This document shows, piece by piece, positions 2 to 46,687 of a stretch of 64,000 nucleotides of DNA. The notes below the pieces were generated by a model. That model was given only the letters and a program-made list of their open reading frames with translations. It did not search any database and had not been told where the DNA came from. The DNA is from Oscillospiraceae bacterium (GTDB lineage: Bacteria; Bacillota; Clostridia; Oscillospirales; Oscillospiraceae), in assembly GCA_015068035.1 (NCBI GenBank), contig SVLI01000007.1:31176-95175 (forward strand), read 5' to 3'. Made by a program: the position numbers and the translations under genes. Position 1 is the first letter of the stretch. Each line of letters opens with the position of its first letter.

Positions 2-1522
2 GTGCGCAATCTTCACGCTGCGGACATTGCGGAAATGGGCAAGCCGGAGATTGCGCCCGATCCCGATGTTTTCGCGGACGAAGTGTTTTTGATGTCCTCA
101 AACTCCTCCAATCATCTCAAAGTTTGCGGCTACACCGGCGAGCGGTTTTACTGGCAGGTCTGCAACAGCGCGAAAATCCTGCAGATGGGCCGCTCCATCC
201 AGAAGCATTACGAGGGCAACCTGAAGCAACTGACGATTTTGCCGTTTTATCACATTTTCGGTCTGGCGGCCGTGTATCTCTGGTTCTGTTTCTTCTCCCG
301 GACGCTGGTTTTCCTTCGGGATCTCAACCCGAAGACCATACTCAGCACCGTGAAAAAGCATAAGGTTACGCATATTTTTGCCGTTCCCGTGCTTTGGGAA
401 CGCCTGTATCAGTCCGCGATGCGGGAGATCCGCTCGCGCGGCGAAAAAACTTACGGCAAGTTCACGCACGGCATGCACCTTGCCGAAAAACTTAACGCCG
501 TTCCCCCGCTCGGAAAGCTGTTTTCCAAACTTGCTTTCCGTGAGGTTCGGGACAACATTTTCGGGCCGAGTGTTCAGTGCATGATCAACGGCGGCGGCGC
601 CATCTCGGCTGAGGCGATGAAGTTTATCAACAGCATCGGCTACCATCTCGTAAACGGCTACGGTATGACGGAAATCGGCATCACCTCGGTGGAGCTCTCC
701 GAGAAAACGAAGCAGATAGTTCTGGGTTCTGTCGGCAAGCCTTTCTCCTCGGTTGAGTACAGTCTCAACGCCGAAAACGAGCTTCTGGTTCGCGGGAATT
801 GCCTTGCGAGCGAAATCTATCAGGACGGGGTCTGGCGCAAGCTGTCCGCAGATGAATGGTTCAACACGCAGGACCTGTTCACGGAGCGAAACGGCGATTA
901 TTACATTGACGGCCGGACAGACGATCTCATCGTCTGCAGCAACGGCGAAAATCTCAACCCCAATCTGGTTGAACCGCTTCTGACGGCGGACGGGATTGAG
1001 CAGGTCTGCCTGATCCCCGCGGAGAATGTCTCCGGCAAGGCGGTCCTTCTGTGCAAGGTCAAGCGTTTTGCAAACAGAGATGCTCTGCTTGCGGTGCGCA
1101 AGAATTTGACCGAGAAAATCCGCACGCTTCGTCTCGACGGCGTCATCAGCGGCATCGTGTTTACCTCCACTCCCCTGCTGGAAGCGGACGATTTCAAGCT
1201 CAACCGCAAGAAAATCCGCAGACGTTTTCAGGCCGGCGCATTCCGGCTGATCGACCTTAGCGAGGATTCGCGCGCAATGGAAGAGGAAGACCGGGAGCTG
1301 GCAAAGGAAGTGGCACAGATTCTTGCCGCAGCGCTGGACCGTTCTGCGGATGAGATCACCCCCGACACGGATTTCTTCCTTGATCTTGGCGGCAGCAGTC
1401 TGGACTACTTTGCTGCCATGACGAATATACAAAACGAATACGGCGTACCTTTCCTGGCAGCCGATGGAACGGGCGCTGCAACCGTGCGCGAGATCGTGAC
1501 TTACATCAAAGCCAACGCGTAA
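2..1522 (+). CDS. Long-chain fatty-acid adenylating enzyme (AMP-binding superfamily) with fused C-terminal carrier-protein domain; 5' end lies outside the window
   Basis: The ORF is open at the window edge. AMP-binding motifs GYGMTE and YYIDGRTDDLIV are present, with a terminal Lys region FKLNRKKIRR. These are followed by the carrier motif FFLDLGGSSLDYF, whose Ser is the phosphopantetheine site. Confidence 0.85.
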   Translation: MRNLHAADIAEMGKPEIAPDPDVFADEVFLMSSNSSNHLKVCGYTGERFYWQVCNSAKILQMGRSIQKHYEGNLKQLTILPFYHIFGLAAVYLWFCFFSRTLVFLRDLNPKTILSTVKKHKVTHIFAVPVLWERLYQSAMREIRSRGEKTYGKFTHGMHLAEKLNAVPPLGKLFSKLAFREVRDNIFGPSVQCMINGGGAISAEAMKFINSIGYHLVNGYGMTEIGITSVELSEKTKQIVLGSVGKPFSSVEYSLNAENELLVRGNCLASEIYQDGVWRKLSADEWFNTQDLFTERNGDYYIDGRTDDLIVCSNGENLNPNLVEPLLTADGIEQVCLIPAENVSGKAVLLCKVKRFANRDALLAVRKNLTEKIRTLRLDGVISGIVFTSTPLLEADDFKLNRKKIRRRFQAGAFRLIDLSEDSRAMEEEDRELAKEVAQILAAALDRSADEITPDTDFFLDLGGSSLDYFAAMTNIQNEYGVPFLAADGTGAATVREIVTYIKANA

Positions 1523-1589
1523 ATCCGATCTTCCAGAAGGGCAAAGCGGCTATGTATGATTTTTATATTGATCAGTGAGGATGAATAGA

Positions 1590-2552
1590 ATGGAAAAGAA
1601 ATTTGTTATTCTTTGCGACGGATCCTGCGACCTGACCCGCGAACTCCGCGAAAAATATGACATCGAGTATATGGCCGGAGTTTTTTCCTATCCCGACGGT
1701 TTTGAGGAGGTCGGTTTCCTCGATTGGGCCGATTGTCAGCATATCCCGAACTGCACTTCGGAAATTTTCTATGAGCAGCTCAAAAAGAATCCGACCGGCT
1801 TCAAAACCGCGCCGGTTTCCCCGCAGGCCTGCTACCGCGAGATTGAGAAATATGTCAAGCAGGGCTACGGTGTCATGACGCTGTCGCTTTCTCAGGCTCT
1901 TTCCGGCGCCTACAGTTTTGTTCTGATGGCGAAGCAGAATATTGAGAAGAATTACCCGGATGCGGAGGTTTACTGCATTGACTCCCGGCGCTACGCCTGC
2001 GCAATCGGCCTGCTGGCCATTCATGCCTCCATGCTCCGCAGCGAGGGCAAGAGTCTGAAGGAAACCGTGGATTACATCGAGGCGAACAAAATCCGCTTCC
2101 ACCAGGCCGGCTGGGTAGACGATCTTTCCTATCTGGCCAAGCAGGGCCGTCTGACCAACTCCAAGGCCTTTTTCGGCTCGCTGATCGGCCTTAAACCCAT
2201 CGGGGAGCTGGACAGCAACGGCCTGACAACGATTATCGCCAAAGTCAAGGGTGAAAAGCTGGCCTTCAAGGTTCTTCTGTCCTATATGGAACTGGTGGGT
2301 GAGGATCTGGGCAATCAGGTCATCGTCATCTCCCAGTCGAACCGGAGAAAGCAGGCCGAAATTTATAAGCGCATGATTGAAGAGCGCTTCCATCCGGAAG
2401 CCGTCTATATCAGCGATGTGTTCCCGCTCACCGGCGTGAACGTAGGCCCCGGCCTGATGGCGGCATATTTCATGGGCAAGCCCATAACCGAGGGTCTCGT
2501 CGCCGAAACCGAGGCCATCAACAAGGCGATTGAACTCAACTCCAAGGCGTAA
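1590..2552 (+). CDS. DegV family fatty-acid-binding protein (FakB-like)
   Basis: ORF 1575..2552. The ATG at 1590 lies 9 nt after GTGAGG. The N-terminal FVILCDGSCDL and a length of about 320 aa are typical of DegV. Confidence 0.85.
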   Translation: MEKKFVILCDGSCDLTRELREKYDIEYMAGVFSYPDGFEEVGFLDWADCQHIPNCTSEIFYEQLKKNPTGFKTAPVSPQACYREIEKYVKQGYGVMTLSLSQALSGAYSFVLMAKQNIEKNYPDAEVYCIDSRRYACAIGLLAIHASMLRSEGKSLKETVDYIEANKIRFHQAGWVDDLSYLAKQGRLTNSKAFFGSLIGLKPIGELDSNGLTTIIAKVKGEKLAFKVLLSYMELVGEDLGNQVIVISQSNRRKQAEIYKRMIEERFHPEAVYISDVFPLTGVNVGPGLMAAYFMGKPITEGLVAETEAINKAIELNSKA

Positions 2553-2610
2553 GCGAACATTTCAACAAACGCACAGTCGACCCCCTAAGATATATGCGAA
2601 GGTGATATTG

Positions 2611-3975
2611 ATGCGGATTATTCGATCAAAATGGAAACTGTTTTTTTACGGCATGGGCGCCATGGGCGTCAACATGCTCAACCTCATTGTCGGTTCCTAT
2701 CTTTGCGACGCGCTTATGACCGAGGGCTTCGCGCAGGAGATTGAATACTGGACCTATGCCAACACGACGCTGGTCGTGGCGGGAATTTGGTCTGTTCTGA
2801 TTGCGGTCTCCAAGATACTTGATGGCTTGATTGACATTCCGCTTGCATCTTTTGCGGACAACCTCAAATCGAAATGGGGCAGACGGCGGCCCGCCCTCCT
2901 AATTGGTCTGTTTCCGATGATCCTGGCTTACATCGGCTTTCTCAATCCCATCGCGGGGCCGGTCAAAAGCCTTGTCAACACCATTTGGTGCGGTGTGATG
3001 CTCTGCATTTTCTATTCGTTTTACACGCTTACCATGGGCACCTATTACGCCACGTTCTCCGAGATCGTGGATAATGACGGTGATCGTCTCTCCCTTTCCA
3101 ACTTCAAAACCGTTTTTGACATTGTTTACTACGTGATGGGTTATGCACTCATCCCGCTGATGATCTCTGCGCGCATCAACATCCGGATCGTCGGCTACAT
3201 TTTCCTGCCGCTGGTTCTGCTGATGCTCATCCCGATTTCCCTCATCAAAGAACCCTCGTCCCTGGACAAGGACCGCAATGATGCACAGAAAAAAGAAATT
3301 CATGTGGGCATGGTGCAGTCCTTCAAATACTGCATTGCCAACAAGTCTTTCGTGATTTGGATGGTAATTTACTGTTTCCTGCAGTTCGGCCTGCAAATTT
3401 ACATCACCGGTCAAAACGTATACTATTCCGGCATCATGAATCTTCAGGGTTTTCAGATGACGATTCTGATGGCATGTGTCTATGCGCCGGTTCCGTTCAC
3501 CCTGATTTTGTATAACCGCATCGTCCGAAAGCGCGGCCTGCGGACAGGTTATCTGTTTTCGCTTTCTGCTTTCACCATCGCCATGGTCTTCATGCTGATT
3601 TGCCGGGCCGATATTCTGAAAGACGTTACACTCCGGCTCGTCGTTGCCGCAATCGGATCGGTCATTTCATCCTTCGGCATCGGATGCTTTTTCTCCATCA
3701 ACTACACGGTCCCCTCTTCGCTCGCGGATGCAGAATATCGGCAAACCGGCATCACACATCCGACCATGTTCTTTGCCGTGCAGGGGCTGTCCTCCGCAAT
3801 CGCCACGGCGATCGCAACGGGACCTGTGTGGGTTAATCTGAAAGGTGCCGGACTGACATGGCTGCTGCCGGTTGTTGCCATTGCCGGAACTGCTGTGTCT
3901 TTCGGCCTTACGTTCCTGCTCCCGAAGGAACTCGGCATGATCGGAAAAACGCCGGACGAAGAAACCGCCGGATAA
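2611..3975 (+). CDS. MFS transporter, GPH/MFS_2 (MelB/Mfsd2a-like) family
   Basis: ORF 2530..3975. The internal ATG at 2611 (MRIIRSKWKLFFYGMGAMG) starts the hydrophobic core. The GPH-type loop LDGLIDIPLASFADNLKSKWGRRRPALL is present, and hydrophobicity suggests about 12 TM segments. Confidence 0.8.
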   Translation: MRIIRSKWKLFFYGMGAMGVNMLNLIVGSYLCDALMTEGFAQEIEYWTYANTTLVVAGIWSVLIAVSKILDGLIDIPLASFADNLKSKWGRRRPALLIGLFPMILAYIGFLNPIAGPVKSLVNTIWCGVMLCIFYSFYTLTMGTYYATFSEIVDNDGDRLSLSNFKTVFDIVYYVMGYALIPLMISARINIRIVGYIFLPLVLLMLIPISLIKEPSSLDKDRNDAQKKEIHVGMVQSFKYCIANKSFVIWMVIYCFLQFGLQIYITGQNVYYSGIMNLQGFQMTILMACVYAPVPFTLILYNRIVRKRGLRTGYLFSLSAFTIAMVFMLICRADILKDVTLRLVVAAIGSVISSFGIGCFFSINYTVPSSLADAEYRQTGITHPTMFFAVQGLSSAIATAIATGPVWVNLKGAGLTWLLPVVAIAGTAVSFGLTFLLPKELGMIGKTPDEETAG

Positions 3976-4008: not shown

Positions 4009-5631
4009 ATGGAACATTTCTGCATTGACGGCATTGTTTTTGCGCAGATGCTTTGGAACGGACTGAAGAATCTGAAGCTCTGCGAAAGTGAGATCAACGA
4101 CATGAATGTGTTTCCCGTCCCGGACGGAGACACGGGCACAAACATGCGCAGCACGCTGGAATACGGCTTGCGGCAGGCGGAGCCTTGCCCGGAGTTGGGT
4201 GGCTACCTCGCTTCGTTTGAAAACAGTGTCCTTCTTGGCGCGCGCGGCAACTCGGGCGTCATCCTGTCCCAGATCTTCAAGGGCATCAGCTCGGCGCTCA
4301 CGGGCACGGCGGAAGCCGGAGCTTCGGAGTTTGCCGATGCCCTCACCCGCGCCTATAAAACCGCATACGATGCCGTCCTCAACCCGGTTGAAGGCACGAT
4401 TCTGACCGTCGTGCGCGAGAGTATTGAAAGCGCAAAAGCACAGATGCCATCCGACGCTTCTGTGGAGGAACTTCTGCGCCTGTATATCGCAGAGATGCAC
4501 GCTTCCCTGCTGCGCACCCCTGCCCTGCTGCCCGTTCTCAAAAGTGCAGGCCTTGTGGACAGCGGCGCGCTCGGCTATATCCGCATTCTTGAGGGCATGC
4601 TCATGTCGCTGCACGGGGAGATGCTCCAGCTGGATGAATCGTTTGAAACATCGGCGGTCGCGCCCCCCATTGACGACAGTTCCTTCACCGCCGACTCCTC
4701 GTTTGGCTACGGCTATTGCCTGGAATTTCTGCTCCAGCTGATGAATAACCGCACCGACGTGCAGAACTTTAACGTGGACGACTACACCGCCCGAATTACG
4801 CCTTTCGGCGATTCTTTGATCGTTACGCAGGTGAAGGACCGCATCAAGGTTCATATCCACACCTTCAAACCCGAACATGTTATGGAACTCAGCCGCAAAT
4901 ACGGAGAGTTTCTGACCTTTAAGCTTGACAATATGCAGCTGCAGCATAATGAATTCAGCGCTGCGAAGAAAGAACACAAGCCTTTGGCTCTTCTCGCCGT
5001 TGCGGATGGCGAAGGTTTTGCCGAGCTATTTGAGGGCCTGGGCTGTGATCTTGTTCTCATGGGCGGAAAAACCATGAGCGTGTCGGTCGGGGAATTCATC
5101 GAGGCCTATAAGTCACTGTCTGCCGATCGCATCCTGATCCTGCCGAATGACAAAAACATTGCCCGCACGGCAAAGCAGGCCGCGCAGATATACGGCGAAG
5201 AAACACTGGAATTTCTTGACACGGAAAACATGGTGCAGGGATATTTCTCCCTGGCCTCTGATATGCCTTGCGATGACATCGACGAGCGCATTGCCTGTCT
5301 GCGCCAGGGCTGCGACGGCGTGGATGTGATTGAGATCAGCCGCTCCACGCGTGATATTGTTTATAACGGCGTGGAGTGCCGCATCGGTCAGGTCGTCACG
5401 CTTATCAACGGAGATGTGAAGTTCTGTGGCGAAGATGTATTCGCCGCGGTTGAATCCGCACTGGAAAGCATGGACGCCAACGAGCGGGACACCGTGGTTG
5501 TCTTCACCGGTAAAGATTATGGGGACAACGATGCTTTGGAGGCCAGGCTTGTAGAGCAGTTCCCCGATGTGGAGCTCCTGCTGATTTACGGTGGGCAAAG
5601 CACCAGCGAACTGATAATCGGAGTGATCTGA
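4009..5631 (+). CDS. DAK2-domain protein, YloV/FakA-like (fatty-acid kinase ATP-binding subunit)
   Basis: 540 aa. The Dak2 nucleotide-binding motif FPVPDGDTGTNM is present. Length and three-part architecture match YloV/FakA. Confidence 0.8.
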   Translation: MEHFCIDGIVFAQMLWNGLKNLKLCESEINDMNVFPVPDGDTGTNMRSTLEYGLRQAEPCPELGGYLASFENSVLLGARGNSGVILSQIFKGISSALTGTAEAGASEFADALTRAYKTAYDAVLNPVEGTILTVVRESIESAKAQMPSDASVEELLRLYIAEMHASLLRTPALLPVLKSAGLVDSGALGYIRILEGMLMSLHGEMLQLDESFETSAVAPPIDDSSFTADSSFGYGYCLEFLLQLMNNRTDVQNFNVDDYTARITPFGDSLIVTQVKDRIKVHIHTFKPEHVMELSRKYGEFLTFKLDNMQLQHNEFSAAKKEHKPLALLAVADGEGFAELFEGLGCDLVLMGGKTMSVSVGEFIEAYKSLSADRILILPNDKNIARTAKQAAQIYGEETLEFLDTENMVQGYFSLASDMPCDDIDERIACLRQGCDGVDVIEISRSTRDIVYNGVECRIGQVVTLINGDVKFCGEDVFAAVESALESMDANERDTVVVFTGKDYGDNDALEARLVEQFPDVELLLIYGGQSTSELIIGVI

Positions 5632-5634
5632 ATC

Positions 5635-6618
5635 ATGGAAATCGTCTTATGGATCATCGTAGGCCTTCTGGCCGCGCCGCTGCTGTTCTATTTTTTCCCG
5701 ACATTTTTGGTGTCCGCCGTTTTGTATCGACGGACTTTGGTGCGCGAATCGGCAGAATCCTGGGGACGGGCCTGCAGCGAGCCGGAGGACGCCGAGACGA
5801 TGGATATGTTTCAGCGGGGCCTCGCCTGGCGGGATGCGCATATTTCTTTTAAGAAAGATGTACATATTGTCAGTGAGAAACTCAATCTTTGGGGCGAGTA
5901 TTTCGATTTTGGCTATGACAAGGCCGTGATCATCATCCCCGGGCGGATGGAAAGCTGCTTCTACTCCCTGTATTATGCAGCGCCGTACAGAGACGCCGGC
6001 TACAACGTGCTGACGATTGACAGCCGTGCGCACGGACTTTCTGACGGGAAGCGCAGCGGCATCGGACTTCGGGAATACCGTGACGTGATCGAATGGGGAA
6101 AATTCCTCACAGAAACACACGGCGTGAAAGAGATCGTGCTGCACGGCATGTGCATTGGTGCTGCCACGGCGCTCTATGCCCTGAATGCAGCGGATGTTCC
6201 CGAAAACTTCACGGCCATCATCGCAGACGGCATGTATTCCACCTTTGCTGAGTCCTACCGGCGGCATATCGTGGAGCGCGGACATCCGGCTTTTCCGTTC
6301 CTTTGGGAAGTTATGCTGATCGAGCGGATTCTGGTCGGTGTCGATGCGATGCACAACGGCCCGATGTACTGCATCGATCAACTCAAAAAACCGATCCTTT
6401 TCCTTTATACAAAAGAGGACAAATATGCATCTCCCGAAATTGCGGAGATGCTTTACGGCAAATGCGTCGCGCCGAAGAGACTTGTCTGGTTTGAAAAGGG
6501 CAAGCACTCGCGCATCCGCATCAATGCCGAGAAAGCATATGACGATGCCATAACGGCATTTCTTGCGGAAAAGGCTGTGCTGCAGCCGGAAACAGCCGCG
6601 GTGAATCCAGAAAGATAA
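5635..6618 (+). CDS. Alpha/beta-fold hydrolase with Cys in the nucleophile elbow; N-terminal TM anchor
   Basis: The elbow reads IVLHGMCIGAA (G-x-C-x-G, Cys173, codon 6151-6153). Candidate Asp (YTKEDKY) and His (EKGKHSR) follow. The N-terminus is hydrophobic (MEIVLWIIVGLLAAPLLFYFF). Confidence 0.75.
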   Translation: MEIVLWIIVGLLAAPLLFYFFPTFLVSAVLYRRTLVRESAESWGRACSEPEDAETMDMFQRGLAWRDAHISFKKDVHIVSEKLNLWGEYFDFGYDKAVIIIPGRMESCFYSLYYAAPYRDAGYNVLTIDSRAHGLSDGKRSGIGLREYRDVIEWGKFLTETHGVKEIVLHGMCIGAATALYALNAADVPENFTAIIADGMYSTFAESYRRHIVERGHPAFPFLWEVMLIERILVGVDAMHNGPMYCIDQLKKPILFLYTKEDKYASPEIAEMLYGKCVAPKRLVWFEKGKHSRIRINAEKAYDDAITAFLAEKAVLQPETAAVNPER

Positions 6619-6625
6619 GAGGCGT

Positions 6626-7561
6626 TTGACATTGCGAAAATCAAAAAAAGTCTACTCGGGGCTTGACAGTTTGCCGCACGGCATGGCATCGACCGAGATC
6701 ACGCCCGGTTGTGTGGCTTTGGAGGGCGGGGCACTGCGCGGCGTCTACACCTCCGGTGTGCTGGATGCCCTTATGGAAGCCGGCATTAACTTCCAGTGCA
6801 CAGTCGGCATTTCCGCAGGCGCACTCACCGGAATCAACTACGTCTCCGGTCAGATCGGCCGCAGCGCCGCGACAAGCCTGCGCTATGCGCGCGACACGAG
6901 ATTCATGGGGCCCAAGGCCTATCGACGCAACAAATGCATCGTCGGCTTTGATTACATCTACAACGAGATCAACAAGGCATACCCGCTCGATAAAAAACGT
7001 TTTTTTGACCCGGCGCGCCGTTTTGTTGCCGTTGCAACGAACTGCCGGACGGGCGAGCCCACATACTTTGACCGCGACACCTGTTCGGACATTTTTCAGG
7101 CCGTGAAGGCCTCCTCCTCCATCCCCTACGCCTCGAAGATGACTATGATCGACGGCGATCCCTATCTGGATGGCGGCTGCTCCGTCAAAGTTCCGTATGC
7201 CTGGGCGCTGGAGCAGGGCTATGAAAAAGTCGTCGTGATCCGCACGCTGACTGCGGACTATCGCAACCGCGTCACGCCCCGCATGTATACCGACAAGGTG
7301 CCGCTGCTGATGGGCCTGTTTTACAGGAAATATCCGGAGCTTCTCCGCAAGCTTATGGCTACCGAACCGCGTGGCAACGCAGAGTTTGAAGAGATGCAGC
7401 GTCTGCATGACGAAGGCCGGATCTTTATGATCTGCCCGTCCAGAGACCTTGGGTTCGACATGGTCATGCGGGATATGGAAAAGCTCGGCGCCATTTATTA
7501 TCTCGGCTATGAGGACGGAAAGGCCGCCATAGAGCCTTTGCGCGCCTACCTCGCCAAATGA
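6626..7561 (+). CDS. Patatin-like phospholipase
   Basis: Three patatin motifs are present: oxyanion GGALRG, nucleophile GISAGA, and catalytic Asp in YLDGG. The track start is TTG at 6626; an alternative ATG lies at 6683. Confidence 0.85.
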   Translation: MTLRKSKKVYSGLDSLPHGMASTEITPGCVALEGGALRGVYTSGVLDALMEAGINFQCTVGISAGALTGINYVSGQIGRSAATSLRYARDTRFMGPKAYRRNKCIVGFDYIYNEINKAYPLDKKRFFDPARRFVAVATNCRTGEPTYFDRDTCSDIFQAVKASSSIPYASKMTMIDGDPYLDGGCSVKVPYAWALEQGYEKVVVIRTLTADYRNRVTPRMYTDKVPLLMGLFYRKYPELLRKLMATEPRGNAEFEEMQRLHDEGRIFMICPSRDLGFDMVMRDMEKLGAIYYLGYEDGKAAIEPLRAYLAK

Positions 7562-7586: not shown

Positions 7587-8255
7587 ATGAGAATGAAATT
7601 TACCTTTCTCAGCAAGGCGTTTATGGCCTTCGTGCGCATAACCGGCCTTATTCCCTACGCGCTGTGTTTCAAAACGAAGGTTCACTGCGCGAACGGAAAC
7701 CGCGCGCTGCGTCATCCTAAGGGCAGCGCCATCATCATTTCCAACCACACCTCGGTGTTTGACTACGCGGTGCTGTTGTTTACCTATCCGCTGCGATACA
7801 TCCGCTGCCAGATCGCGGAGCTGATGTTCCGCAAGCCGGTGATCGGGCCTTTCCTGCGCGCGATGGGCGGCATCTACGTCAATCGGGACAGCTTTGATTT
7901 CTCTTTTGTGGAGGAATCGCTGGAGATTCTGGATAACGGCGGCGTTGTAGCCGTCTTTCCTGAGAGCCGCATCCCTTTGGCGGGCGAGGCACTGCCCCTG
8001 CCGTTTAAGCAGAGCCCCACGCTGATCGCCGCGCGCAGCCGCGCTCCCATCTATTTGATGTATACCGACGGCTGCTATTTCAAAAAAAAGCGGGCGCATG
8101 TCCTGCTGGACGGCCCGGTATATGTGCAGGATTTTTGGGACGATACGAAAAGCGAAAAAGAAAACCTCGCCTCGGTCACGGAATTGCTTCGGAAGAAGAT
8201 CGCAGAGATGGGGCAGGAACTTGAAAGCCTGAAAGCAAAGAAGAAGGAAAAGTGA
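7587..8255 (+). CDS. PlsC-type lysophospholipid/1-acylglycerol-3-phosphate acyltransferase
   Basis: The HX4D motif NHTSVFD is present, followed by a VAVFPESR block. A GAAGGGAGAG RBS region lies upstream. Confidence 0.8.
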   Translation: MRMKFTFLSKAFMAFVRITGLIPYALCFKTKVHCANGNRALRHPKGSAIIISNHTSVFDYAVLLFTYPLRYIRCQIAELMFRKPVIGPFLRAMGGIYVNRDSFDFSFVEESLEILDNGGVVAVFPESRIPLAGEALPLPFKQSPTLIAARSRAPIYLMYTDGCYFKKKRAHVLLDGPVYVQDFWDDTKSEKENLASVTELLRKKIAEMGQELESLKAKKKEK

Positions 8256-8264
8256 GCGCTGCAA

Positions 8265-8963
8265 ATGAATCCATGCAACACACAAAATGAAGAAAAAAAA
8301 GAAAAGAAGCTCCGCGCAAAGCTTCTGAGCCTCCGTTATTTGGTGTTGGACAGCGGCAGAGTGATTGCCGGTCCGTTTGTCCTGCTTTATTTCAGGCCGA
8401 AGTTTTACTATGAAAATGCGGCCGCCCGCAGGAAACTGCGCGGAAACGCGCTGGTCATTGCAAACCATCCCGGACAGTTTGACTGCGTGAAGCTCCTTGT
8501 CGCAGTCTGGTACAGGCGGCTGCACATAATCGCAACAAAAGATATCTTCGAGCGGAGCAAATTCGCCAACTGGTTCTACACGCAGTGCCAGTGCATCAAG
8601 GTGGACAAGGACAACTTCAACTATGACACCTTCCTCACCGTACAGGAGCGGCTTGCCGGCGGCTGTGTCGTGGGGCTGTTCCCGGAAGGACAGGTGAGCG
8701 CTTCGGACGAGGGTGTTTCCGCGTTCAAATCCGGCGTAACGCTTATGGCGATGAAAAGCGGCGCACCCGTTCAGCCCATTTTCATTGCAGAGCGTAAAAA
8801 CGTGTTCCAGCGGCTGCGCATCGCGGTTGGTGAACCGATTCACGTGGACGAGCTGAGCAAGGACAAGCCGGCCATGCTTGCGATTCAGGAAGCCACGCAG
8901 AAAATCCGTGAAAAAGAACTGGAGCTTAAACAATTGATAGATACAGAAAGGCAGGAAAGATAA
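8265..8963 (+). CDS. PlsC-type acyltransferase (second paralogue)
   Basis: The HX4D motif NHPGQFD and the block GLFPEGQ are present. Confidence 0.8.
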   Translation: MNPCNTQNEEKKEKKLRAKLLSLRYLVLDSGRVIAGPFVLLYFRPKFYYENAAARRKLRGNALVIANHPGQFDCVKLLVAVWYRRLHIIATKDIFERSKFANWFYTQCQCIKVDKDNFNYDTFLTVQERLAGGCVVGLFPEGQVSASDEGVSAFKSGVTLMAMKSGAPVQPIFIAERKNVFQRLRIAVGEPIHVDELSKDKPAMLAIQEATQKIREKELELKQLIDTERQER

Positions 8964-8964
8964 C

Positions 8965-10455
8965 ATGTACGACAAGTTCAAAGATTACACCGAGCCGGAG
9001 AATTTCGCCAAGATTGTCGATTACGGCACAGTCGGCGAAATGTGGGCTTATGTATCCAAGCAGTTCGCGCAGAACACCGCCATCGTATACGGCGAGAAAA
9101 CCTACACTTTCGCCGAGCTTGACAGCGACGTTGCGCATTACAGAGCCTTTCTGCTCTCCCAGGGCGTTAAGAAGGGCGACTGTGTCGGCATGCTGCTGCC
9201 GAACAGCTACGCCTTTGCCAAGGTCTTTCTTGCGCTGACAACGCTGGGCGCCGTGGCCGCCGTTCTGCCGCCGCAGCTTCCGGCGGAGGCCGTATTTGGC
9301 TGCGCGATGAAGTTTGGCATGAAAGGGCTGGTATATGCGCCCGGCCTCGCGGAAAAAACCGCGGTACTGCAGAAGATGAATCCGTCCTGCCTGCTGCTGG
9401 ACAGCGACGCCGCCTTTGACGGCACCGCGCCGGCCGGCGAAGTGCTGCCCAAAGATCCCTGCGCGATCATGTTCACGGGCGGCACCTCCGGCAAGAGCAA
9501 GGGCGCGCTGCTCTCGCATCAGGCCGTGATGGCCGGCACGCGCAACGGCTGCTACGGCGTCAACCCCGCGTTTGAACAGCGCTACGTCCTCGTTCTGCCG
9601 CTGTCCCACGTTTTCGGCCTCATCCGCAATCTGATGACCTCGCTGTACTCCGGCAGCGGCCTGTTCATCTGCCAGGATACGAAGGACATGTTCCGCGACA
9701 TCGCCATGTTCAAGCCGACCATTATGGTCCTTGTTCCCGCGCTGGCCGAGATGGCGCTCACCCTCTCCAAGCAGTTCGGACGGAACATGCTGGGTGACGA
9801 CCTGAAATACATCATCTGCGGCGCCGCGCCGGTTCCGCAGTACCTCGTGCGGGAATACCACGCCATGGGCGTACAGATGGCGCCCGGCTACGGCCTCACG
9901 GAGAGCGCCAACCTCGTCAGCGGCAACCCGGATGCGATGGGACATCCGGACTCCGTCGGCATCCCCTATGCCGGCCAGGAGATCAAGTTCGTCGACGGCG
10001 AAATCTGGCTTAAGGGCATCAACATGATGGAAAGCTATGTCGGCGAGCCGGAGGAGAACGCTGAGGCGTATGAGGACGGCTGGTTCAAGACCGGTGACCT
10101 CGGCCGTCTGGACGAGGACGGCTTCCTCTACATCACCGGCCGCAAAAAGGCAATTCTCGTGCTTCCCTCCGGCGAGAACGTCTCCCCGGAGGAGGTTGAG
10201 GCCTGCTTCAACGCCATTGATCTGGTGCAGGACAGCCTCGTGTACTGCGATGAGAACGGCGCGCTGGTTCTGGAGGTTGTGCCGAGAAGAACAGAGATGG
10301 CCAAGGTCGAGGGTGACGCCGGAAAGCTTCTGCAGGAGCAGATCGCCCAGGCAAACAGCACGCTTCCGTCAATCAAGCGCGTCAGCCGCGTTGTGATTCG
10401 CGAGGAAGACTTCAAGCGCAGCCCGAGCATGAAGATTTTGAGGGATCAGAAATGA
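8965..10455 (+). CDS. Acyl-CoA/acyl-ACP synthetase (AMP-binding)
   Basis: Motifs FTGGTSGKSKGALLSH, GYGLTE and GWFKTGDLGRLDEDGFLYITGRKK are present. The gene starts 1 nt after the preceding stop. Confidence 0.88.
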   Translation: MYDKFKDYTEPENFAKIVDYGTVGEMWAYVSKQFAQNTAIVYGEKTYTFAELDSDVAHYRAFLLSQGVKKGDCVGMLLPNSYAFAKVFLALTTLGAVAAVLPPQLPAEAVFGCAMKFGMKGLVYAPGLAEKTAVLQKMNPSCLLLDSDAAFDGTAPAGEVLPKDPCAIMFTGGTSGKSKGALLSHQAVMAGTRNGCYGVNPAFEQRYVLVLPLSHVFGLIRNLMTSLYSGSGLFICQDTKDMFRDIAMFKPTIMVLVPALAEMALTLSKQFGRNMLGDDLKYIICGAAPVPQYLVREYHAMGVQMAPGYGLTESANLVSGNPDAMGHPDSVGIPYAGQEIKFVDGEIWLKGINMMESYVGEPEENAEAYEDGWFKTGDLGRLDEDGFLYITGRKKAILVLPSGENVSPEEVEACFNAIDLVQDSLVYCDENGALVLEVVPRRTEMAKVEGDAGKLLQEQIAQANSTLPSIKRVSRVVIREEDFKRSPSMKILRDQK

Positions 10456-10706
10456 GCAGAGAAGAAATTTTTGAAAAGCTGAAATACATTCTGAAGTACA
10501 CGCTTTCGAACGCGGACGAGATTTTGCCCATCGTCACGGAGGACTCGGATTTATACGTGGATCTCGGCCTGACTTCAGTCGGTATGCTGTATATCGTCAT
10601 CTCCGTTGAGGAGATGTTCAAAATTTCCATGAGTAATGCCAAATTTGACGATTTCAAAACCGTCAAAAACGTCATTGACTATCTGGAGAAGAAGATCAAT
10701 CTATGA
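10452..10706 (+). CDS. Acyl carrier protein (stand-alone)
   Basis: 84 aa and acidic. The motif DLGLTSVGML places Ser at the canonical phosphopantetheine position. ATGA overlaps occur at both ends. Confidence 0.8.
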   Translation: MSREEIFEKLKYILKYTLSNADEILPIVTEDSDLYVDLGLTSVGMLYIVISVEEMFKISMSNAKFDDFKTVKNVIDYLEKKINL

Positions 10707-11749
10707 AATGGCTTATGAAGGACCCGAAGCCGGGCGATATTCTTCGGGTTGAAAGCGGAATTTTCATGCACTTCGGCATCTATGTGTCTGACGAGGAGAT
10801 CATCCAGTTCGGCATGCCCCCCACCTCCCTTGAAGACCTGCAGGGGAAGGACATCCGCATTTGCGTATCCGACATTGATGCGTTCTGCCGCGGTGCGTTT
10901 GTGGAGGTCGCTTCCCTGAGCTTTCAGGAGAAAAAGAAGGCACGCAAGCCGGCGGATGTCATCGCCTATGCGCGCTCGAAGATCGGCATGGGCGGATATG
11001 ACATCCTGGAAAACAACTGCGAGCACTTTGTAAACGACTGTGTTTTCGGCAAAAAGTTCAGCGAACAGGTCGACAAGGTCAAGCGCAACACTTTCCGGCG
11101 CATCCCGTATATTGACCTGTACATTTCGGAAATTCCCGCTTCTCTCCCTCCCTGCCCGCTGTTCCCGCCCGAACGGCAGGCAGAGCTGGACGCCTGCGGC
11201 AACGAAAACGTCCGCAGGCAGAGGCAATACGCCTGGCAGGTTTTGCGCTTCGCGCTGAAAAAAACCTGCAGCATCGACATGCGGGAAAGCGACATTCATA
11301 AAACGGAGAGCGGTAAGTGGATCTGCTCTGACGCCTGCTTCTCCCTCTCCCACTCTCCCAATTTCGTTGCGGTCGCTGTGGCGAAAATGCCTGTCGGCGT
11401 TGATATTGAGGAGCTGCCGGATTTGCGCATGGAGGAAAGGCTCTATGAGCGCATCGCAACAGAAGGGGAGCTTTCTTCGCTTGGAGCTGCTCCCTCCCGG
11501 GAGGACGTTGCGCGCCTGTGGACGCTCAAAGAGAGCGTTTTTAAGCGCATCGGCACGGGACATTTTTCTCCCTGCAGCATCAACACACTGACGGAATCCG
11601 CCCGCTGCTTTCGGGACAATGCCTTTGATGGGCTGATGATCGCCGTTTCCGCCGAGTCGCTCGAGTGCATAAACGTCTATCACCTCAGTCCCGAAACGGA
11701 GGCGTGCGCGGACTTTACGCTCACGCCGGCTTCCGTTACGACGGCCTGA
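10703..11749 (+). CDS. Fusion protein: N-terminal LRAT/PLAAT (NlpC/P60-like) thiol acyltransferase domain plus C-terminal Sfp-type 4'-phosphopantetheinyl transferase
   Basis: The N-terminal part has His23 in MHFGIYV and NCEHFVNDC (Cys106, codon 11018-11020). The C-terminal part has SLSHSPNFVAVAV, VGVDIEE and WTLKESVFK, which are PPTase motifs. Confidence 0.8.
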   Translation: MKWLMKDPKPGDILRVESGIFMHFGIYVSDEEIIQFGMPPTSLEDLQGKDIRICVSDIDAFCRGAFVEVASLSFQEKKKARKPADVIAYARSKIGMGGYDILENNCEHFVNDCVFGKKFSEQVDKVKRNTFRRIPYIDLYISEIPASLPPCPLFPPERQAELDACGNENVRRQRQYAWQVLRFALKKTCSIDMRESDIHKTESGKWICSDACFSLSHSPNFVAVAVAKMPVGVDIEELPDLRMEERLYERIATEGELSSLGAAPSREDVARLWTLKESVFKRIGTGHFSPCSINTLTESARCFRDNAFDGLMIAVSAESLECINVYHLSPETEACADFTLTPASVTTA

Positions 11750-11765
11750 AAAATGCTGTAAATGC

Positions 11766-11803
11766 AAAAAACTGTTGCAGGGAAACTCCTGCAACAGTTT
11801 TTT
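11766..11803. terminator. Bidirectional intrinsic terminator closing the lipid operon and the convergent gene
   Basis: An 11-bp perfect stem (actgttgcagg / cctgcaacagt) carries a 6-nt loop. It is flanked by an A5 run and a T6 run. Confidence 0.85.
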
Positions 11804-11823: not shown

Positions 11824-12354
11824 TTAATATGCGAACGCCGCGGCAATAATGATAACAATCCAATAGAAGATCATGCAGATGGACGCAATCAGTCCGACGA
11901 TCGACGTGATCCTGCCGACCCTCGCAAAAGCTGTCGTAAAGCCAAAGGTAACAGCTCTTTCCTTTGCGGAGCCGGACTTCTTCATGCCGATGATCGCCAA
12001 AACAAAGCCGGCCACGACGGTCCAGCACGTGCACAGGGAAAGGATGCCGAGAATCATTGCGGTGATGCCCAGCTTTCTGGAATCGTCCACCTGCGCCGTG
12101 TAAACAGGCTGCTGTACGTAAACGGGCTGCTGCGCATACTGCTGCTGCACGGGCGGCTGCACATAAACCGGCTGCTGATACTGCGGCTGCGCGGGCTGCT
12201 GGGTGTACTGCTGCTGTGTATAGACGGGCTGCTGATACTGCTGCTGGTAGACAGGCTGCTCATAAACAGGCGGCTGCACGGGCTGCTGTTCGTAGACAGG
12301 CTGCTGTGCAGACTCGACCGTTTCGTTCAGATTGTTCTGCTCGTTCATGTTCAT
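11824..12354 (-). CDS. Membrane protein with Q/P/Y-rich repeat N-terminus and DUF4190-like C-terminal TM pair
   Basis: The N-terminal roughly 70 aa are degenerate QQPVY repeats. The C-terminal part has 2-3 hydrophobic helices (ITAMILGILSLC..., IVGLIASICMIFYWIVIIIAAAF). Confidence 0.7.
   Translation of the reverse strand: MNMNEQNNLNETVESAQQPVYEQQPVQPPVYEQPVYQQQYQQPVYTQQQYTQQPAQPQYQQPVYVQPPVQQQYAQQPVYVQQPVYTAQVDDSRKLGITAMILGILSLCTCWTVVAGFVLAIIGMKKSGSAKERAVTFGFTTAFARVGRITSIVGLIASICMIFYWIVIIIAAAFAY
12094..12306 (-). repeat. Degenerate tandem codon repeat encoding (Q-Q-P-V-Y)n
   Basis: The plus strand shows reiterated ctgctg / gtagac / gtaaac units. Translation gives QQPVYEQQPVQPPVYEQPVYQQQYQQPVYTQQQY... 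Confidence 0.75.
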
Positions 12355-12472
12355 ATCTCCTTCACATAGAGTGTGGCTTCAGTATAACAGGCCACAAATC
12401 ACAAGTCAAGTTTGGCATGCTGCTGCATGGCGGGAATCAAAGGCTTCGTACATAAGAAAGGAACGGCTGCTT

Positions 12473-13531
12473 ATGCCGAAAAGGTTCAAAAAACTGGTCA
12501 TTATGATTGCCGCCGCGGTGCTGCTTTTCGCGTTTGTGATTCCGGAGGCTGCGGCCATTGTTGTCTACAATTCCATATTCGGCGACCGCTACGAGCCCTA
12601 TGCCCCGCTGATGTTTCACATGGAGGATTTCCCCGGTCTGGAGCGCACGCGCTACAGCTTCCCCTCGGACAGAGGGCAGACGCTGGTCGGCTATCTTTTC
12701 CGCCGCGGCGCGGAGAAGCCCAAGGGCGTCGTCGTGATCTGCCACGGTCTTGGCGGCGGTGGACAGATTGACTATCTGGACTGCGCAAACTGCTTTGCCG
12801 AGAACGGATACTGGGTCTTCGCCTATGACGGAACGGGCAACGGCGAGAGCGAGGGCAAGGACGTGCGCGGTCTGCCGCAGGCTGTGATTGACCTTGACTA
12901 CGCGATTTCCTTTGTCAAGGAGACCTTTTCCGATCTGCCTGTCATGCTGTTCGGGCACAGCTGGGGCGGTTACGCGGCGGCAAGCGTGCTGCAATATCAC
13001 CCGGATGTGAAGGCGGTTGCCTCGGTCGCGGGCATGAACTGCTCAGCCGATCTGATGCGTGTCTACGGGAAAGAGGCCGCCGGCTTCTTTGCGGACATCT
13101 CCATGCCGTACGTAGATTTGTATGAACGCCTGAAATTTGGGAAATACGCTTCCGCCGCCGCTCTGGACGGCTTTGAAGCCTCCGACGCGGCCGTGCTCAT
13201 CGTGCACAGCGAGGACGATGCCCGGGTTCCAATCTCCATCGGCTATGAGCTCTACTATGAACAGTATGCCGACTCCGAGCGCTTCCGCTTCATCCGCTAC
13301 ACGGACCGCGGACACGGCTACGTGTATGCTTCGCAGCACGCAGTGGATTATCTTGATGATTTCTATGCGGGACTGGAGGCCTGCGAGGAAAACGAAAAGA
13401 ACGCATATGTCGCCCAAAACCTGGATTGGACGCTATGGACGAACCGTTTGGACGCCGAACTGTTCTCCGAAATCGTCAGCCTGTACGACAGTACGCTGGA
13501 GTCTGTTCCAAATCAGGACAAATCCGCATAA
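12473..13531 (+). CDS. Membrane-anchored alpha/beta hydrolase
   Basis: ORF 12332..13531. The internal ATG at 12473 (MPKRFKKLVIMIAAAVLLFAF) gives a signal/anchor. The nucleophile elbow is GHSWGG. Confidence 0.8.
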   Translation: MPKRFKKLVIMIAAAVLLFAFVIPEAAAIVVYNSIFGDRYEPYAPLMFHMEDFPGLERTRYSFPSDRGQTLVGYLFRRGAEKPKGVVVICHGLGGGGQIDYLDCANCFAENGYWVFAYDGTGNGESEGKDVRGLPQAVIDLDYAISFVKETFSDLPVMLFGHSWGGYAAASVLQYHPDVKAVASVAGMNCSADLMRVYGKEAAGFFADISMPYVDLYERLKFGKYASAAALDGFEASDAAVLIVHSEDDARVPISIGYELYYEQYADSERFRFIRYTDRGHGYVYASQHAVDYLDDFYAGLEACEENEKNAYVAQNLDWTLWTNRLDAELFSEIVSLYDSTLESVPNQDKSA

Positions 13532-13648: not shown

Positions 13649-13687
13649 AGGTTAAATTTTCATAGGAAGAGAAAAGGAGTGTCAAAA

Positions 13688-15076
13688 ATGAAGTATTTTA
13701 AGTATGGCTCCCCCGCCCCGATCGCATATGCCGACTTCATGGCAAAGAACAAGGTTCCCCCTGTTGAGAAACTCAACATCTGCCACGAAAGCATCGTTCC
13801 GGACATGATGAACGTCTGGTACGAATACATTCCCGCATCCTATGATGGAAATACGCCTCTGCCGCTGATCGTGCAGCTTCACGGCGGCGGTATGGACGGC
13901 AGACGTTGGGCCGATATGACAGTCTGGCATGTGCTGGCTGAGCGCAAGGGACTGATCGTGATTTATCCCAACTCACCGGACTACGGCACCTGGCGCTGCG
14001 ACGACCGCGATGTGGAATTTCTCTATCAGCTCATCGCACTCGTCTGCGAAAAATACAGCATCGACAAAACCCGGATCTACATGCAGGGCATGTCCAATGG
14101 TGACATGATGACGCTTGCCTTCACCATGCAGCACCCGGAGATCTTGGCTGCCGCAGGATACTCCACCGGCCCCTCCGCACACATGTATGTGGATGACGAG
14201 CGCCCGGTCGGTGCCCTGCCCGCCATCCAGATGCGCGGCGAGCTTGACCTCCTCTCCCAGCAAACGGAGGCCGAGCCACTCGATAAATATGAGATCCGCT
14301 ACAACATCAACGACTTTAACCGCGAACTCTGGCAGGATGTGAACGAACTGGACGAGCTTCCGCTTCTGACGCTGCGCGGGAAGGACAACTTCATGCGCTT
14401 CAAAGGCGAGACGGCCGACCTCATCAACTGGGAGATCGTGGGCTGCGGCCACAGAGAACCCGCCGACATGGCGCAGGTTTACTGGGACACACTGTATTCC
14501 GGATACATCCGCGTGGATGGGCAGCTTGTGCGCAGAGACTTTGAGGATCCGCTCACGCCCGACGAAGACCTCGTTGCCATCGCGCTCGGCAGCCGCAATG
14601 CCTTTGTTGGCAACAAGGTCGTGCAGATGACGGAGCTTGACTCCGGTGTTGTGCGTCTCCTTGACCCGACCATGAGCATGTATAAAAAAGTGGTCGACCC
14701 CAACGAAATGATGGAAACCCCTGCGCTTTTTGCTCCGGTGGAATTCTTCGTGGCCGCCTTCGGCGCCAAACTCAGCTATCTTGATTCCGGCGACTGTGCT
14801 GTTGTGGAATTCCCGGATGGGAATGTTGCGATCTTCCGGTCCGACTCCCTTCTGGTTGAATACAACGGACGCTTCCGCTCCATGCGCAAGCCGAGTGTTC
14901 TTCTGGGGGGCAACTTCTATATCCCCGTGGGTGAATTCTGCGCGGACTTTATGAACATGTTTGTGTCCCAGGCGGCAGATGTCATGCTGATCTCCGGCCA
15001 CGCCGCCATCTTGGGCCGCTACACCGCCAGAGTGCTGCGCAGAATCCTCGGTGGTTACGTCCGCGCCATTGAATAG
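13688..15076 (+). CDS. PHB-depolymerase-family (LpqC-like) esterase fused to a C-terminal copper-amine-oxidase-N-like 'stalk' domain
   Basis: The esterase half has LIVQLHGGG and the nucleophile elbow QGMSNGDMM. The ATG at 13688 lies 8 nt after AAGGAG. No signal peptide is evident. Confidence 0.7.
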   Translation: MKYFKYGSPAPIAYADFMAKNKVPPVEKLNICHESIVPDMMNVWYEYIPASYDGNTPLPLIVQLHGGGMDGRRWADMTVWHVLAERKGLIVIYPNSPDYGTWRCDDRDVEFLYQLIALVCEKYSIDKTRIYMQGMSNGDMMTLAFTMQHPEILAAAGYSTGPSAHMYVDDERPVGALPAIQMRGELDLLSQQTEAEPLDKYEIRYNINDFNRELWQDVNELDELPLLTLRGKDNFMRFKGETADLINWEIVGCGHREPADMAQVYWDTLYSGYIRVDGQLVRRDFEDPLTPDEDLVAIALGSRNAFVGNKVVQMTELDSGVVRLLDPTMSMYKKVVDPNEMMETPALFAPVEFFVAAFGAKLSYLDSGDCAVVEFPDGNVAIFRSDSLLVEYNGRFRSMRKPSVLLGGNFYIPVGEFCADFMNMFVSQAADVMLISGHAAILGRYTARVLRRILGGYVRAIE

Positions 15077-22051: not shown

Positions 22052-22118
22052 GGCGCGCGCCGTCAAAATATTGATAAGTAAAATAATAATATAACAGGAT
22101 CAGAAAGGAGAGTCCCTT

Positions 22119-46682: not shown

Positions 46683-46687
46683 AAAAC

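Follow-up and report, generated by a model that had tools for sequence, protein, structure and literature searches.

What role could an acyl-enzyme of the LRAT/PLAAT family play on the same polypeptide as an enzyme that primes carrier proteins? The question is raised by an open reading frame (ORF) in a 64-kb stretch of contig SVLI01000007.1 from an Oscillospiraceae bacterium (64,000 nucleotides, hereafter the window). The ORF is predicted to encode an LRAT/PLAAT-type domain followed by an Sfp-type 4'-phosphopantetheinyl transferase (PPTase), directly 3' of the gene of a stand-alone acyl carrier protein (ACP). A first-pass annotation of this DNA had proposed that the fusion joins the making of the ACP thiol to its loading from phospholipid, or that it proofreads mis-acylated ACP. 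Comparison with relatives points to the LRAT domain as the constrained, conserved core partner in the operon, the PPTase half being optional. As a tentative function, to which we give a probability of about 0.4-0.45, we propose a phospholipid-donor LRAT enzyme coupled to re-acylation, in a Lands-cycle-like salvage or remodelling of lipids.

A predicted soluble LRAT-type domain fused to an Sfp-type PPTase

The N-terminal part of the protein matched the Pfam LRAT family (PF04970) over residues 7-118, with an E-value of 1.9e-20 and 73.8 bits (cutoff 24.3), covering model positions 2-119 of 120. A profile built from 29 family members and searched against the PDB retrieved, over residues 5-128, PLAAT3, PLAAT2, PLAAT4 and a HRASLS3/LRAT chimera with E-values of 7e-11 to 1e-8. 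The AlphaFold2 (AF2) model of the fusion has a mean predicted local distance difference test score (pLDDT) of 89.3 and a predicted template modelling score (pTM) of 0.68. In Foldseek its N-terminal part aligned with PLAAT3 (4fa0) with a template modelling score (TM) of 0.82 and a root-mean-square deviation of 2.8 Å, and with 4dot (TM 0.80) and 7zom (TM 0.77). The fusion protein had no Pfam match to NLPC_P60 or to Peptidase_C97 (Cln5/PPPDE), and no classical NlpC/P60 peptidase was present among the top 50 Foldseek matches to the model. A generic NlpC/P60 peptidoglycan peptidase was thereby ruled out, the relatives by sequence and fold being PLAAT/LRAT only.

The permuted catalytic order is present, with His N-terminal to Cys, the Cys within the NCEHF motif and a conserved Tyr upstream. 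No variation is seen at H23, at Y99 or in N104-N105-C106-E107-H108-F109 among 80-81 family sequences. In the window, the codons are 10769-10771 for His23 (MHFGIYV), 10997-10999 for Tyr99 and 11018-11020 for Cys106 (NNCEHFVNDC). Tyr99 lies 7 residues before Cys106, which we take to be the spacing of LRAT itself. The third position of the triad is not conserved, being Gln, Ala or Glu in different family members. Neither a transmembrane segment nor a membrane anchor or signal peptide was found in the protein (maximal 19-residue hydropathy 1.14 for the fusion and 0.49-1.22 for stand-alone forms). The stand-alone forms end in a basic helix and not in a membrane anchor; such an anchor characterises the animal enzymes, whereas the Pfam LRAT family as a whole is not defined by it. 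These features identify the N-terminal half as a soluble acyl-enzyme domain of the LRAT/PLAAT family, of Cys-His(-Tyr) type.

The C-terminal half matched Pfam ACPS (PF01648) over residues 230-290 (E 2.8e-12, 47.1 bits, cutoff 25), and the family profile matched Sfp (1qr0) in the PDB over residues 179-288 with an E-value of 1.4e-15. In the model, residues 136-348 aligned with Sfp (1qr0 and 4mrt) over 229-235 columns, with a TM of 0.63-0.64 normalised to Sfp. The motifs SLSHSPNFVAVAV, VGVDIEE and WTLKESVFK are read in the translation, and the window protein has H217, D234, E236, W273, E277 and K281, as do about 57 of 62 family members. The C-terminal half is a full group II PPTase of the Sfp type, with two lobes and every catalytic residue; the domain scores under all NCBIfam equivalog cutoffs. 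Genes for type II fatty acid synthesis (FASII) and for AcpS were not found in the rest of the 64-kb window, so the window cannot tell whether the fused PPTase is the sole PPTase of the cell.

Both Pfam domains were found on one protein in about 97 clusters, at 34-47% identity to the window fusion, and the window protein occurs with identical sequence on at least 23 independent metagenome contigs. An assembly or frameshift artefact is excluded by these counts, and the two halves are not separate genes in all relatives. The combined domain and motif evidence far exceeds chance matching, and we regard the identities of both domains as nearly certain. The first-pass annotation had thus read both domains correctly, as Pfam, the PDB profile and the predicted fold agree, and His23 and Cys106, which it had taken as catalytic, are present in the translation and invariant in the family. 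The window gene is predicted to encode a real bifunctional protein, soluble and cytoplasmic. A separate case is seen in the near-identical loci L085 and L086, where a 337-aa fusion in L085 faces an LRAT ORF of 118 aa in L086 (from 10049); a frameshift or assembly error is likely in one of these two contigs.

The LRAT domain is the conserved unit and the PPTase half is optional

Relatives scoring at E <= 1e-30 formed 174 clusters (50% identity) across gut and rumen Clostridia. By ORF calling and phmmer, the same module was recovered in 83 genome loci of Clostridia at 31-47% identity, the hosts being Oscillospiraceae, Christensenellaceae, Lachnospiraceae, Ruminococcus, Butyrivibrio crossotus and Candidatus Scatosoma; Ruminococcus difficilis has it as well. 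Many relatives carry a stand-alone LRAT protein of 132-155 aa, often of 135-145 aa, directly 3' of the corresponding ACP in the same operon. A profile search gave 554 matches, of which the best 120 were all stand-alone LRAT proteins, one of them from R. difficilis. The stand-alone proteins are up to 55% identical to the window LRAT domain and are nearer to it than the fused homologues, except for the near-identical P0001.

Other arrangements were also observed. In L054, LRAT and PPTase are adjacent separate genes, and in L065, L077 and L083 the PPTase lies on the opposite strand. In P0371 (L167, 5505-6668) the second PlsC-type acyltransferase is itself fused to LRAT (AT-LRAT), in a minimal operon of three genes: ligase-carrier, acyltransferase and AT-LRAT. 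The acyltransferase half of P0371 is 32% identical (E 1e-31) to acyltransferase 2 of the window. LRAT is fused only with carrier-binding enzymes, i.e. the PPTase and the PlsC-type acyltransferase. Fused, degenerate and stand-alone forms are interspersed on a rough neighbour-joining tree built from the LRAT domain, from which repeated loss of the PPTase is deduced. The fusion as an essential functional unit was rejected, as stand-alone, split, degenerate and acyltransferase-fused forms exist.

Some LRAT proteins stand apart from these forms. P0238 (1125 aa), P0330 (637 aa), P0366 (565 aa) and P0370 (403 aa) contain 2 to 11 tandem LRAT/PLAAT domains, several copies of which read NSEHF or NSEDF instead of NCEHF; they probably belong to other lineages, possibly eukaryotic. 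In P0245 (299 aa), part of a GH123 glycoside hydrolase catalytic domain comes after the LRAT domain; the gene was probably called across a chimera or a frameshift.

The degenerate forms are informative on the fate of the second half. Dead PPTase remnants were found in at least 8 loci (L043, L047, L050, L106, L044, L062, L100 and L156) and in P0098. They lack H217, D234, E236, E277 and K281 and are often shortened, and the LRAT active site is intact. P0240 and P0244 also belong to these LRAT proteins with a dead PPTase, the whole group measuring 265-348 aa. About 25 more clusters of 250-312 aa came from an exhaustive search, those tested matching LRAT alone. The clade of L043, L047, L050 and L106 has a constant length of 280-282 aa at a near-saturated synonymous divergence (dS about 0.9-1.1). 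In this clade, the ratio of nonsynonymous to synonymous divergence (dN/dS) is 0.36-0.46 for the dead PPTase remnant and 0.08-0.15 for the LRAT domain. Selection on the remnant appears relaxed yet purifying. Considering its constant length together with this dN/dS, the data suggest that the remnant keeps a non-catalytic role, in docking or structure, and the PPTase-like pseudo-enzyme domain may be a carrier-docking module.

To avoid circularity, the operon was also re-sampled in metagenome contigs via acyltransferase 1 and not via LRAT. In this sample LRAT was present in 34 of about 40 informative loci. The remaining loci, about 6, had no thioesterase or lipase in its place, FakB/FakA or an alpha/beta-hydrolase following directly after the ACP. 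The stand-alone LRATs, the split genes, the dead PPTases beside an intact LRAT and the interleaved tree together support the LRAT half as the constrained unit, a conserved core partner to which, on these sequence comparisons, the PPTase is an optional addition. The fusion on which the first-pass annotation had built is therefore genuine and at the same time dispensable. Its argument of a PPTase that makes the thiol beside the acyl-enzyme cannot be the central logic, since LRAT occurs without a PPTase in cis.

An operon of ligases, carriers and acyltransferases

The fusion gene is the last of a tightly packed operon of 11 genes on one strand (Table 1). Both PlsC-type acyltransferases have an intact HX4D motif; their matches to the NCBIfam Aas models NF006386 and NF005959 are sub-threshold (42-46 bits against cutoffs of 886-1349). 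In relatives, the canonical order begins with the ligase-carrier (about 640 aa), an optional MFS_2 gene (about 630 aa), two acyltransferases, an optional ligase (about 500 aa) and an optional ACP. It then continues with LRAT, with or without PPTase, an alpha/beta-hydrolase, FakB, MFS_2, FakA and a further alpha/beta-hydrolase. The MFS_2 gene is kept in the operons of relatives. We consider a role of the operon in lipid salvage to be likely. The first-pass annotation had overlooked this content, namely two ATP-dependent ligases for its two carriers, FakAB, MFS_2, the lipases and the two acyltransferases.

Table 1 Features of the operon and of the fusion gene, with positions in the window
Feature	Position	Strand	Evidence or remark
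Adenylating ligase of about 640 aa with C-terminal carrier, first operon gene, 3' part (cut by window start)	2..1522	+	AMP-binding E 2.2e-23, PP-binding E 7.5e-10
DegV/FakB fatty-acid-binding protein	1575..2552	+	Pfam DegV E 1.5e-47
MFS_2 transporter, candidate importer of lysolipid or lipid-derived solute	2530..3975	+	Pfam MFS_2 E 6.1e-33
FakA fatty acid kinase catalytic subunit	4009..5631	+	Pfam Dak2, FakA-like_M, FakA-like_C
Alpha/beta-hydrolase (Hydrolase_4 type), N-terminal membrane anchor	5635..6618	+	Pfam; 19-residue hydropathy maximum 2.56, aa 3-21
Patatin-like phospholipase	6626..7561	+	Pfam Patatin E 5.7e-20, DUF6363
PlsC-type acyltransferase 1, NHTSVFD (HX4D motif)	7587..8255	+	Pfam Acyltransferase E 5.6e-15
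PlsC-type acyltransferase 2, NHPGQFD (HX4D motif)	8265..8963	+	Pfam Acyltransferase E 7.3e-18
Adenylating fatty-acid ligase of about 500 aa	8965..10455	+	Pfam AMP-binding E 4.9e-61, AMP-binding_C_3
Stand-alone ACP, 84 aa, attachment Ser in DLGLTS, pI 4.6	10452..10706	+	Pfam PP-binding; NCBIfam ACP models
LRAT-PPTase fusion ORF	10703..11749	+	348 aa, ATG start
LRAT/PLAAT-family domain, aa 1-130 of the fusion	10703..11092	+	Pfam, family alignment, PDB profile and fold matches
Sfp-type 4'-phosphopantetheinyl transferase domain, aa 136-348 of the fusion	11108..11749	+	Pfam ACPS; Sfp 1qr0/4mrt
Intrinsic terminator closing the operon	11766..11803	+	17-bp stem, then T run

A proposed Lands-cycle-like role and its alternatives

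Activation (by ligases, carriers and FakAB), re-acylation (by the PlsC-type acyltransferases) and deacylation, which together make up a Lands cycle, are all covered by the operon content. In the scheme that we propose, the PPTase would convert both carriers, the stand-alone ACP and the carrier domain of the 640-aa ligase, to their holo forms, and the two ligases would load fatty acids onto them at the expense of ATP. The two PlsC-type acyltransferases would then move the acyl chains to lysolipid or glycerol-phosphate acceptors, like Aas. The LRAT enzyme would accept on Cys106 an acyl chain from the ester of a glycerophospholipid or lysophospholipid, freeing a deacylated lipid; re-acylation of this lipid by the neighbouring acyltransferases would result in the exchange of resident or imported acyl chains. 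The acyl chain on Cys106 could pass to the phosphopantetheine thiol of a carrier, an ATP-free loading at which the coupling of the genes hints, or be hydrolysed, in which case FakAB or the ligases would recapture the free fatty acid. The fusion with the PPTase would represent an assembly of carrier-centred enzymes in one complex, and the LRAT enzyme could function without it.

The donor in this scheme is taken from the family. LRAT, the PLAATs, LnsA (with the sn-1 chain of phosphatidylglycerol) and Tox-Act1 all use phospholipid esters as acyl donors via a Cys thioester, and Cys106 would by analogy be acylated by a phospholipid or lysophospholipid. The minimal operon reduces to activation, re-acylase and deacylase, the fused enzymes being presumably consecutive. 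A phospholipase A in the cytoplasm puts the cell at risk, and this would account for its close coupling with the re-acylating enzymes.

As for the acyl acceptor, the exclusively carrier-binding fusion partners and the retained dead PPTase weakly favour transfer to a carrier thiol. Within the phospholipid-donor scheme, we rate the passage of the acyl chain from Cys106 to a carrier, which the first-pass annotation had proposed and which we keep as a sub-variant, as rather unlikely. Stated in full, this form, also held with considerable doubt, would have the soluble LRAT enzyme load a holo-carrier from a (lyso)phospholipid ester through acyl-Cys106, independently of ATP. Together with the PlsC-type acyltransferases this would make a carrier-mediated phospholipid transacylation cycle of gut and rumen Clostridia, in which the PPTase-like domain, active or dead, would dock the carrier.

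Several points weigh against a phospholipid donor coupled to re-acylation. We infer both the acyl donor and the acceptor of the LRAT enzyme. The protein has no membrane anchor (maximal 19-residue hydropathy 1.14-1.22), unlike PLAAT/LRAT, and may not readily reach the phospholipid of a bilayer; for an enzyme that is soluble, a protein-bound acyl-ACP or a monomeric lysolipid would be at least as suitable. The patatin and the several alpha/beta-hydrolases of the operon could deacylate lipids and the two ligases already load the carriers, so that the LRAT step is not logically required. The absence of LRAT, without replacement, from about 6 of 40 loci makes it look accessory rather than essential, and adjacent operon genes can fuse incidentally.

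In favour of the scheme is the close link of the LRAT gene to carriers. In the window, the fusion start overlaps the ACP stop by 4 nt, the TGA of the ACP lying within ATGA at 10703-10706. The translational coupling noted in the first-pass annotation is thereby confirmed, and the ligase ORF (8965..10455) overlaps the ACP start likewise, by ATGA. Among 75 loci, the overlap of the LRAT start with the ACP stop is 4 nt in 43 and 1 nt in 14. The attachment Ser is kept in at least 90% of 111 operon ACPs. The Ser of the ligase carrier domain (FxDLGGtSLdYF) is kept in at least 90% of 115 orthologues, including all loci without a stand-alone ACP. A carrier with a conserved Ser is thus present in every locus, and LRAT is always near a carrier. 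Two carriers that keep this Ser, the stand-alone ACP and the carrier domain of the ligase, are thus candidate substrates for the PPTase in the window. The stand-alone ACP was never seen without the 500-aa ligase or LRAT, which is not significant, about 0.3 exceptions being expected under independence. The isoelectric points (pI), about 6.1-6.3 for the LRAT domain and about 4.3-4.6 for the ACP, gave no clear signal of complementary charge.

Tight coupling to the ACP, together with the PPTase fusion, would also fit a Cys thioesterase that edits or recycles carriers. Such an enzyme would hydrolyse acyl groups stuck on the phosphopantetheine arm and free the scarce dedicated ACP, as an analogue of type II thioesterases (TEII) with a papain-like fold. 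It might act on non-cognate fatty acids of the diet that the ligases have loaded, or on acyl groups installed by a PPTase that uses acyl-CoA in place of CoA. Sfp-type PPTases do misprime carriers with acyl-CoA, TEIIs repair such carriers, and the permuted NlpC/P60 enzymes Cln5 and PPPDE1/2 are efficient Cys acyl-thioesterases. The solubility of the protein suits a protein-bound substrate, and an accessory editor could well be missing from about 6 of 40 loci without replacement. However, the LRAT domain keeps a dN/dS of 0.08-0.15 even where the PPTase is lost or dead, so that the repair of mispriming is not its main job, and the proofreading suggested in the first-pass annotation is weakened in the version that invoked mispriming by the PPTase. 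A presence in 85% of loci, plus the minimal three-gene operon, is high for an editor. In the AT-LRAT protein, a hydrolase of acyl-carriers fused to an acyltransferase that consumes them would be wasteful. The domain scores as LRAT/PLAAT and not as Cln5/PPPDE, with no match to Peptidase_C97, and LRAT-type acyl-enzymes are typically poor hydrolases. We consider this explanation, the main alternative to our scheme, unlikely.

The order acyltransferase, acyltransferase, LRAT could also mean three successive acylations. In that case the LRAT enzyme would be a third acyltransferase, which passes an acyl group from the carrier thioester through Cys106 to an acceptor beyond the sn-1 and sn-2 hydroxyls, such as a head-group amine or hydroxyl, and yields a tri-acylated or N-acylated lipid. 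The PLAATs and LnsA transfer acyl chains to the N or O of varied acceptors, and the coupling of the gene to a carrier is consistent with a carrier-bound donor. On the other hand, no characterised LRAT-family enzyme is known to use a thioester donor, and the operon has no gene for a specialised-lipid scaffold beyond two ordinary PlsC-type acyltransferases. Its FakAB, MFS and lipase content fits salvage rather than a specialised product. A third acylation is, in our judgement, distinctly improbable.

The conservation of FakA and FakB in the super-operon raises one more alternative, a PlsX-like transacylase in which the acyl-phosphate made by FakAB would acylate Cys106 and thence the holo-carrier. 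Acyl-phosphate is a strong acyl donor, and many loci have the ACP and LRAT without the 500-aa ligase. This idea is purely inferred and has no precedent in the family. Moreover, Fak genes were not seen in the available sequence of the L167 minimal operon and of several other loci, and in LRAT-less loci FakB/FakA directly follow the ACP, i.e. Fak works without LRAT. Such a transacylase appears very improbable. Phospholipid deacylation coupled to re-acylation is the reading that we tentatively retain.

Neighbouring genes

A few other features were noted downstream of the operon. Convergent with its end, a 176-aa protein (11824-12354, minus strand) has N-terminal repeats rich in Q, P and Y (QQPVYxQQ) and a hydrophobic C-terminal half, with weak Pfam matches only. 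In R. difficilis, a DUF4190-type gene lies a few genes 3' of the operon (L168, 14855-15424). Just past the terminator, on the plus strand, are an alpha/beta-hydrolase (Hydrolase_4/Peptidase_S9; 12332-13531) and an esterase of the PHB-depolymerase type with a Cu_amine_oxidN1 domain (13679-15076). Both may be further lipases of the regulon of the operon.

A few kb 3' of the operon (15128-18813, plus strand) are two half-transporters of an ATP-binding cassette exporter (ABC_membrane and ABC_tran), probably a heterodimer. A PFL-like glycyl-radical enzyme of 809 aa and its radical-SAM activase are encoded at 21104-24548 (plus strand); a similar pair is found near the operon, on the opposite strand, in the distant relatives L001 and L002. 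The CdsA (CTP_transf_1) ORF at 54197-55423 (plus strand) has about 135 aa N-terminal to the domain, i.e. its start is called too far upstream or it has an extra region. At 44608-46862 (minus strand), LarC (nickel insertion) adjoins a LarB-like gene of the AIR-carboxylase family, which suggests synthesis of the nickel-pincer cofactor.

Novelty and significance

A full-text literature search yielded no description of a protein joining LRAT to a PPTase, of an LRAT linked to an ACP or of the operon, in line with the first-pass annotation, which knew of no characterised example of the architecture. Databases label these proteins by family name only. The families to which the enzymes belong are known. 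What is new, and uncharacterised, is the cytoplasmic context linked to carriers, together with the two architectures LRAT-PPTase and AT-LRAT. In our view, the widespread ACP-linked soluble LRAT and the surrounding salvage operon are of more interest than the fusion itself, as they point to an undescribed step in the assimilation of dietary and host lipids by abundant commensals. If the LRAT enzyme links phospholipid esters to ACP thioesters, this would be new biochemistry for the LRAT family and for the loading of ACP. A Cys-based thioesterase with an editing role would instead add a new kind to the TEIIs. Under both readings, the 11-gene operon stands as a candidate for a major route by which exogenous fatty acids are used, with relevance to microbiome lipid metabolism and to the bypass of FASII inhibitors.

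Comparison with known systems

At the level of the operon, the closest analogue is LplT-Aas with AasS. In this system (PMC11416262), a transporter, a PlsC-type acyltransferase and an adenylating acyl-ACP synthetase re-acylate lysophospholipids with exogenous fatty acids in Gram-negatives. The window operon shares with it a transporter, PlsC-type acyltransferases and adenylating synthetases. It differs in having separate genes, two ligases, two carriers of which one is a dedicated stand-alone ACP, two acyltransferases, FakAB, several lipases and an MFS_2 transporter in place of LplT (MFS_1), and its LRAT enzyme has no counterpart in LplT-Aas. With Aas models far under cutoff, functions on separate genes and an MFS_2 transporter, the operon falls outside LplT-Aas.

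At the level of the LRAT domain, PLAAT1-5 (HRASLS/H-rev107) and LRAT have the same permuted NlpC/P60 fold, with His before Cys, NCEHF and a conserved Tyr. The window protein differs from them in being bacterial and, by prediction, cytoplasmic, with a shorter main loop, no C-terminal transmembrane anchor and an unconserved third triad position, and in being encoded beside, or fused to, carrier-protein enzymes. The bacterial LRAT-like or permuted NlpC/P60 lipid enzymes in the papers retrieved (LnsA, Lnb, Tox-Act1 and TseH) are extracytoplasmic, and the animal enzymes membrane-anchored. LnsA of Staphylococcus aureus is also a bacterial LRAT-like enzyme, with an essential His/Cys dyad and Tyr and a dispensable third polar residue. 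However, it is secreted with cleavage of its signal peptide, has the membrane protein LnsB as a partner and attaches acyl chains to the N-termini of lipoproteins, whereas the window protein is predicted to be cytoplasmic and is carrier-linked.

TEIIs, which are often encoded with PPTases, strip acyl groups from carrier thiols, a possibly analogous role. A TEII is a Ser-His-Asp alpha/beta-hydrolase and the window domain a papain-like Cys-His enzyme, which lies outside that family and would be a functional analogue at most. Cln5/PPPDE have a related fold able to hydrolyse acyl-thioesters but form another family of the superfamily.

The PPTase half resembles the Sfp-type enzymes (Sfp, AcpT, AusB and AASDHPPT) in its two lobes of about 215 aa and in the motifs SxSHS, GxDxE and WxxKE(S/A)xxK. 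Unlike them, it sits behind an LRAT domain and is catalytically dead yet retained in several lineages. A PPTase within the complex that holds its carrier is also found at the C-terminus of fungal fatty acid synthase alpha, and the family profile matches 2uv8 and others; that PPTase is AcpS-like and part of a megasynthase, whereas here an Sfp-type PPTase is carried by a single small lipid enzyme.

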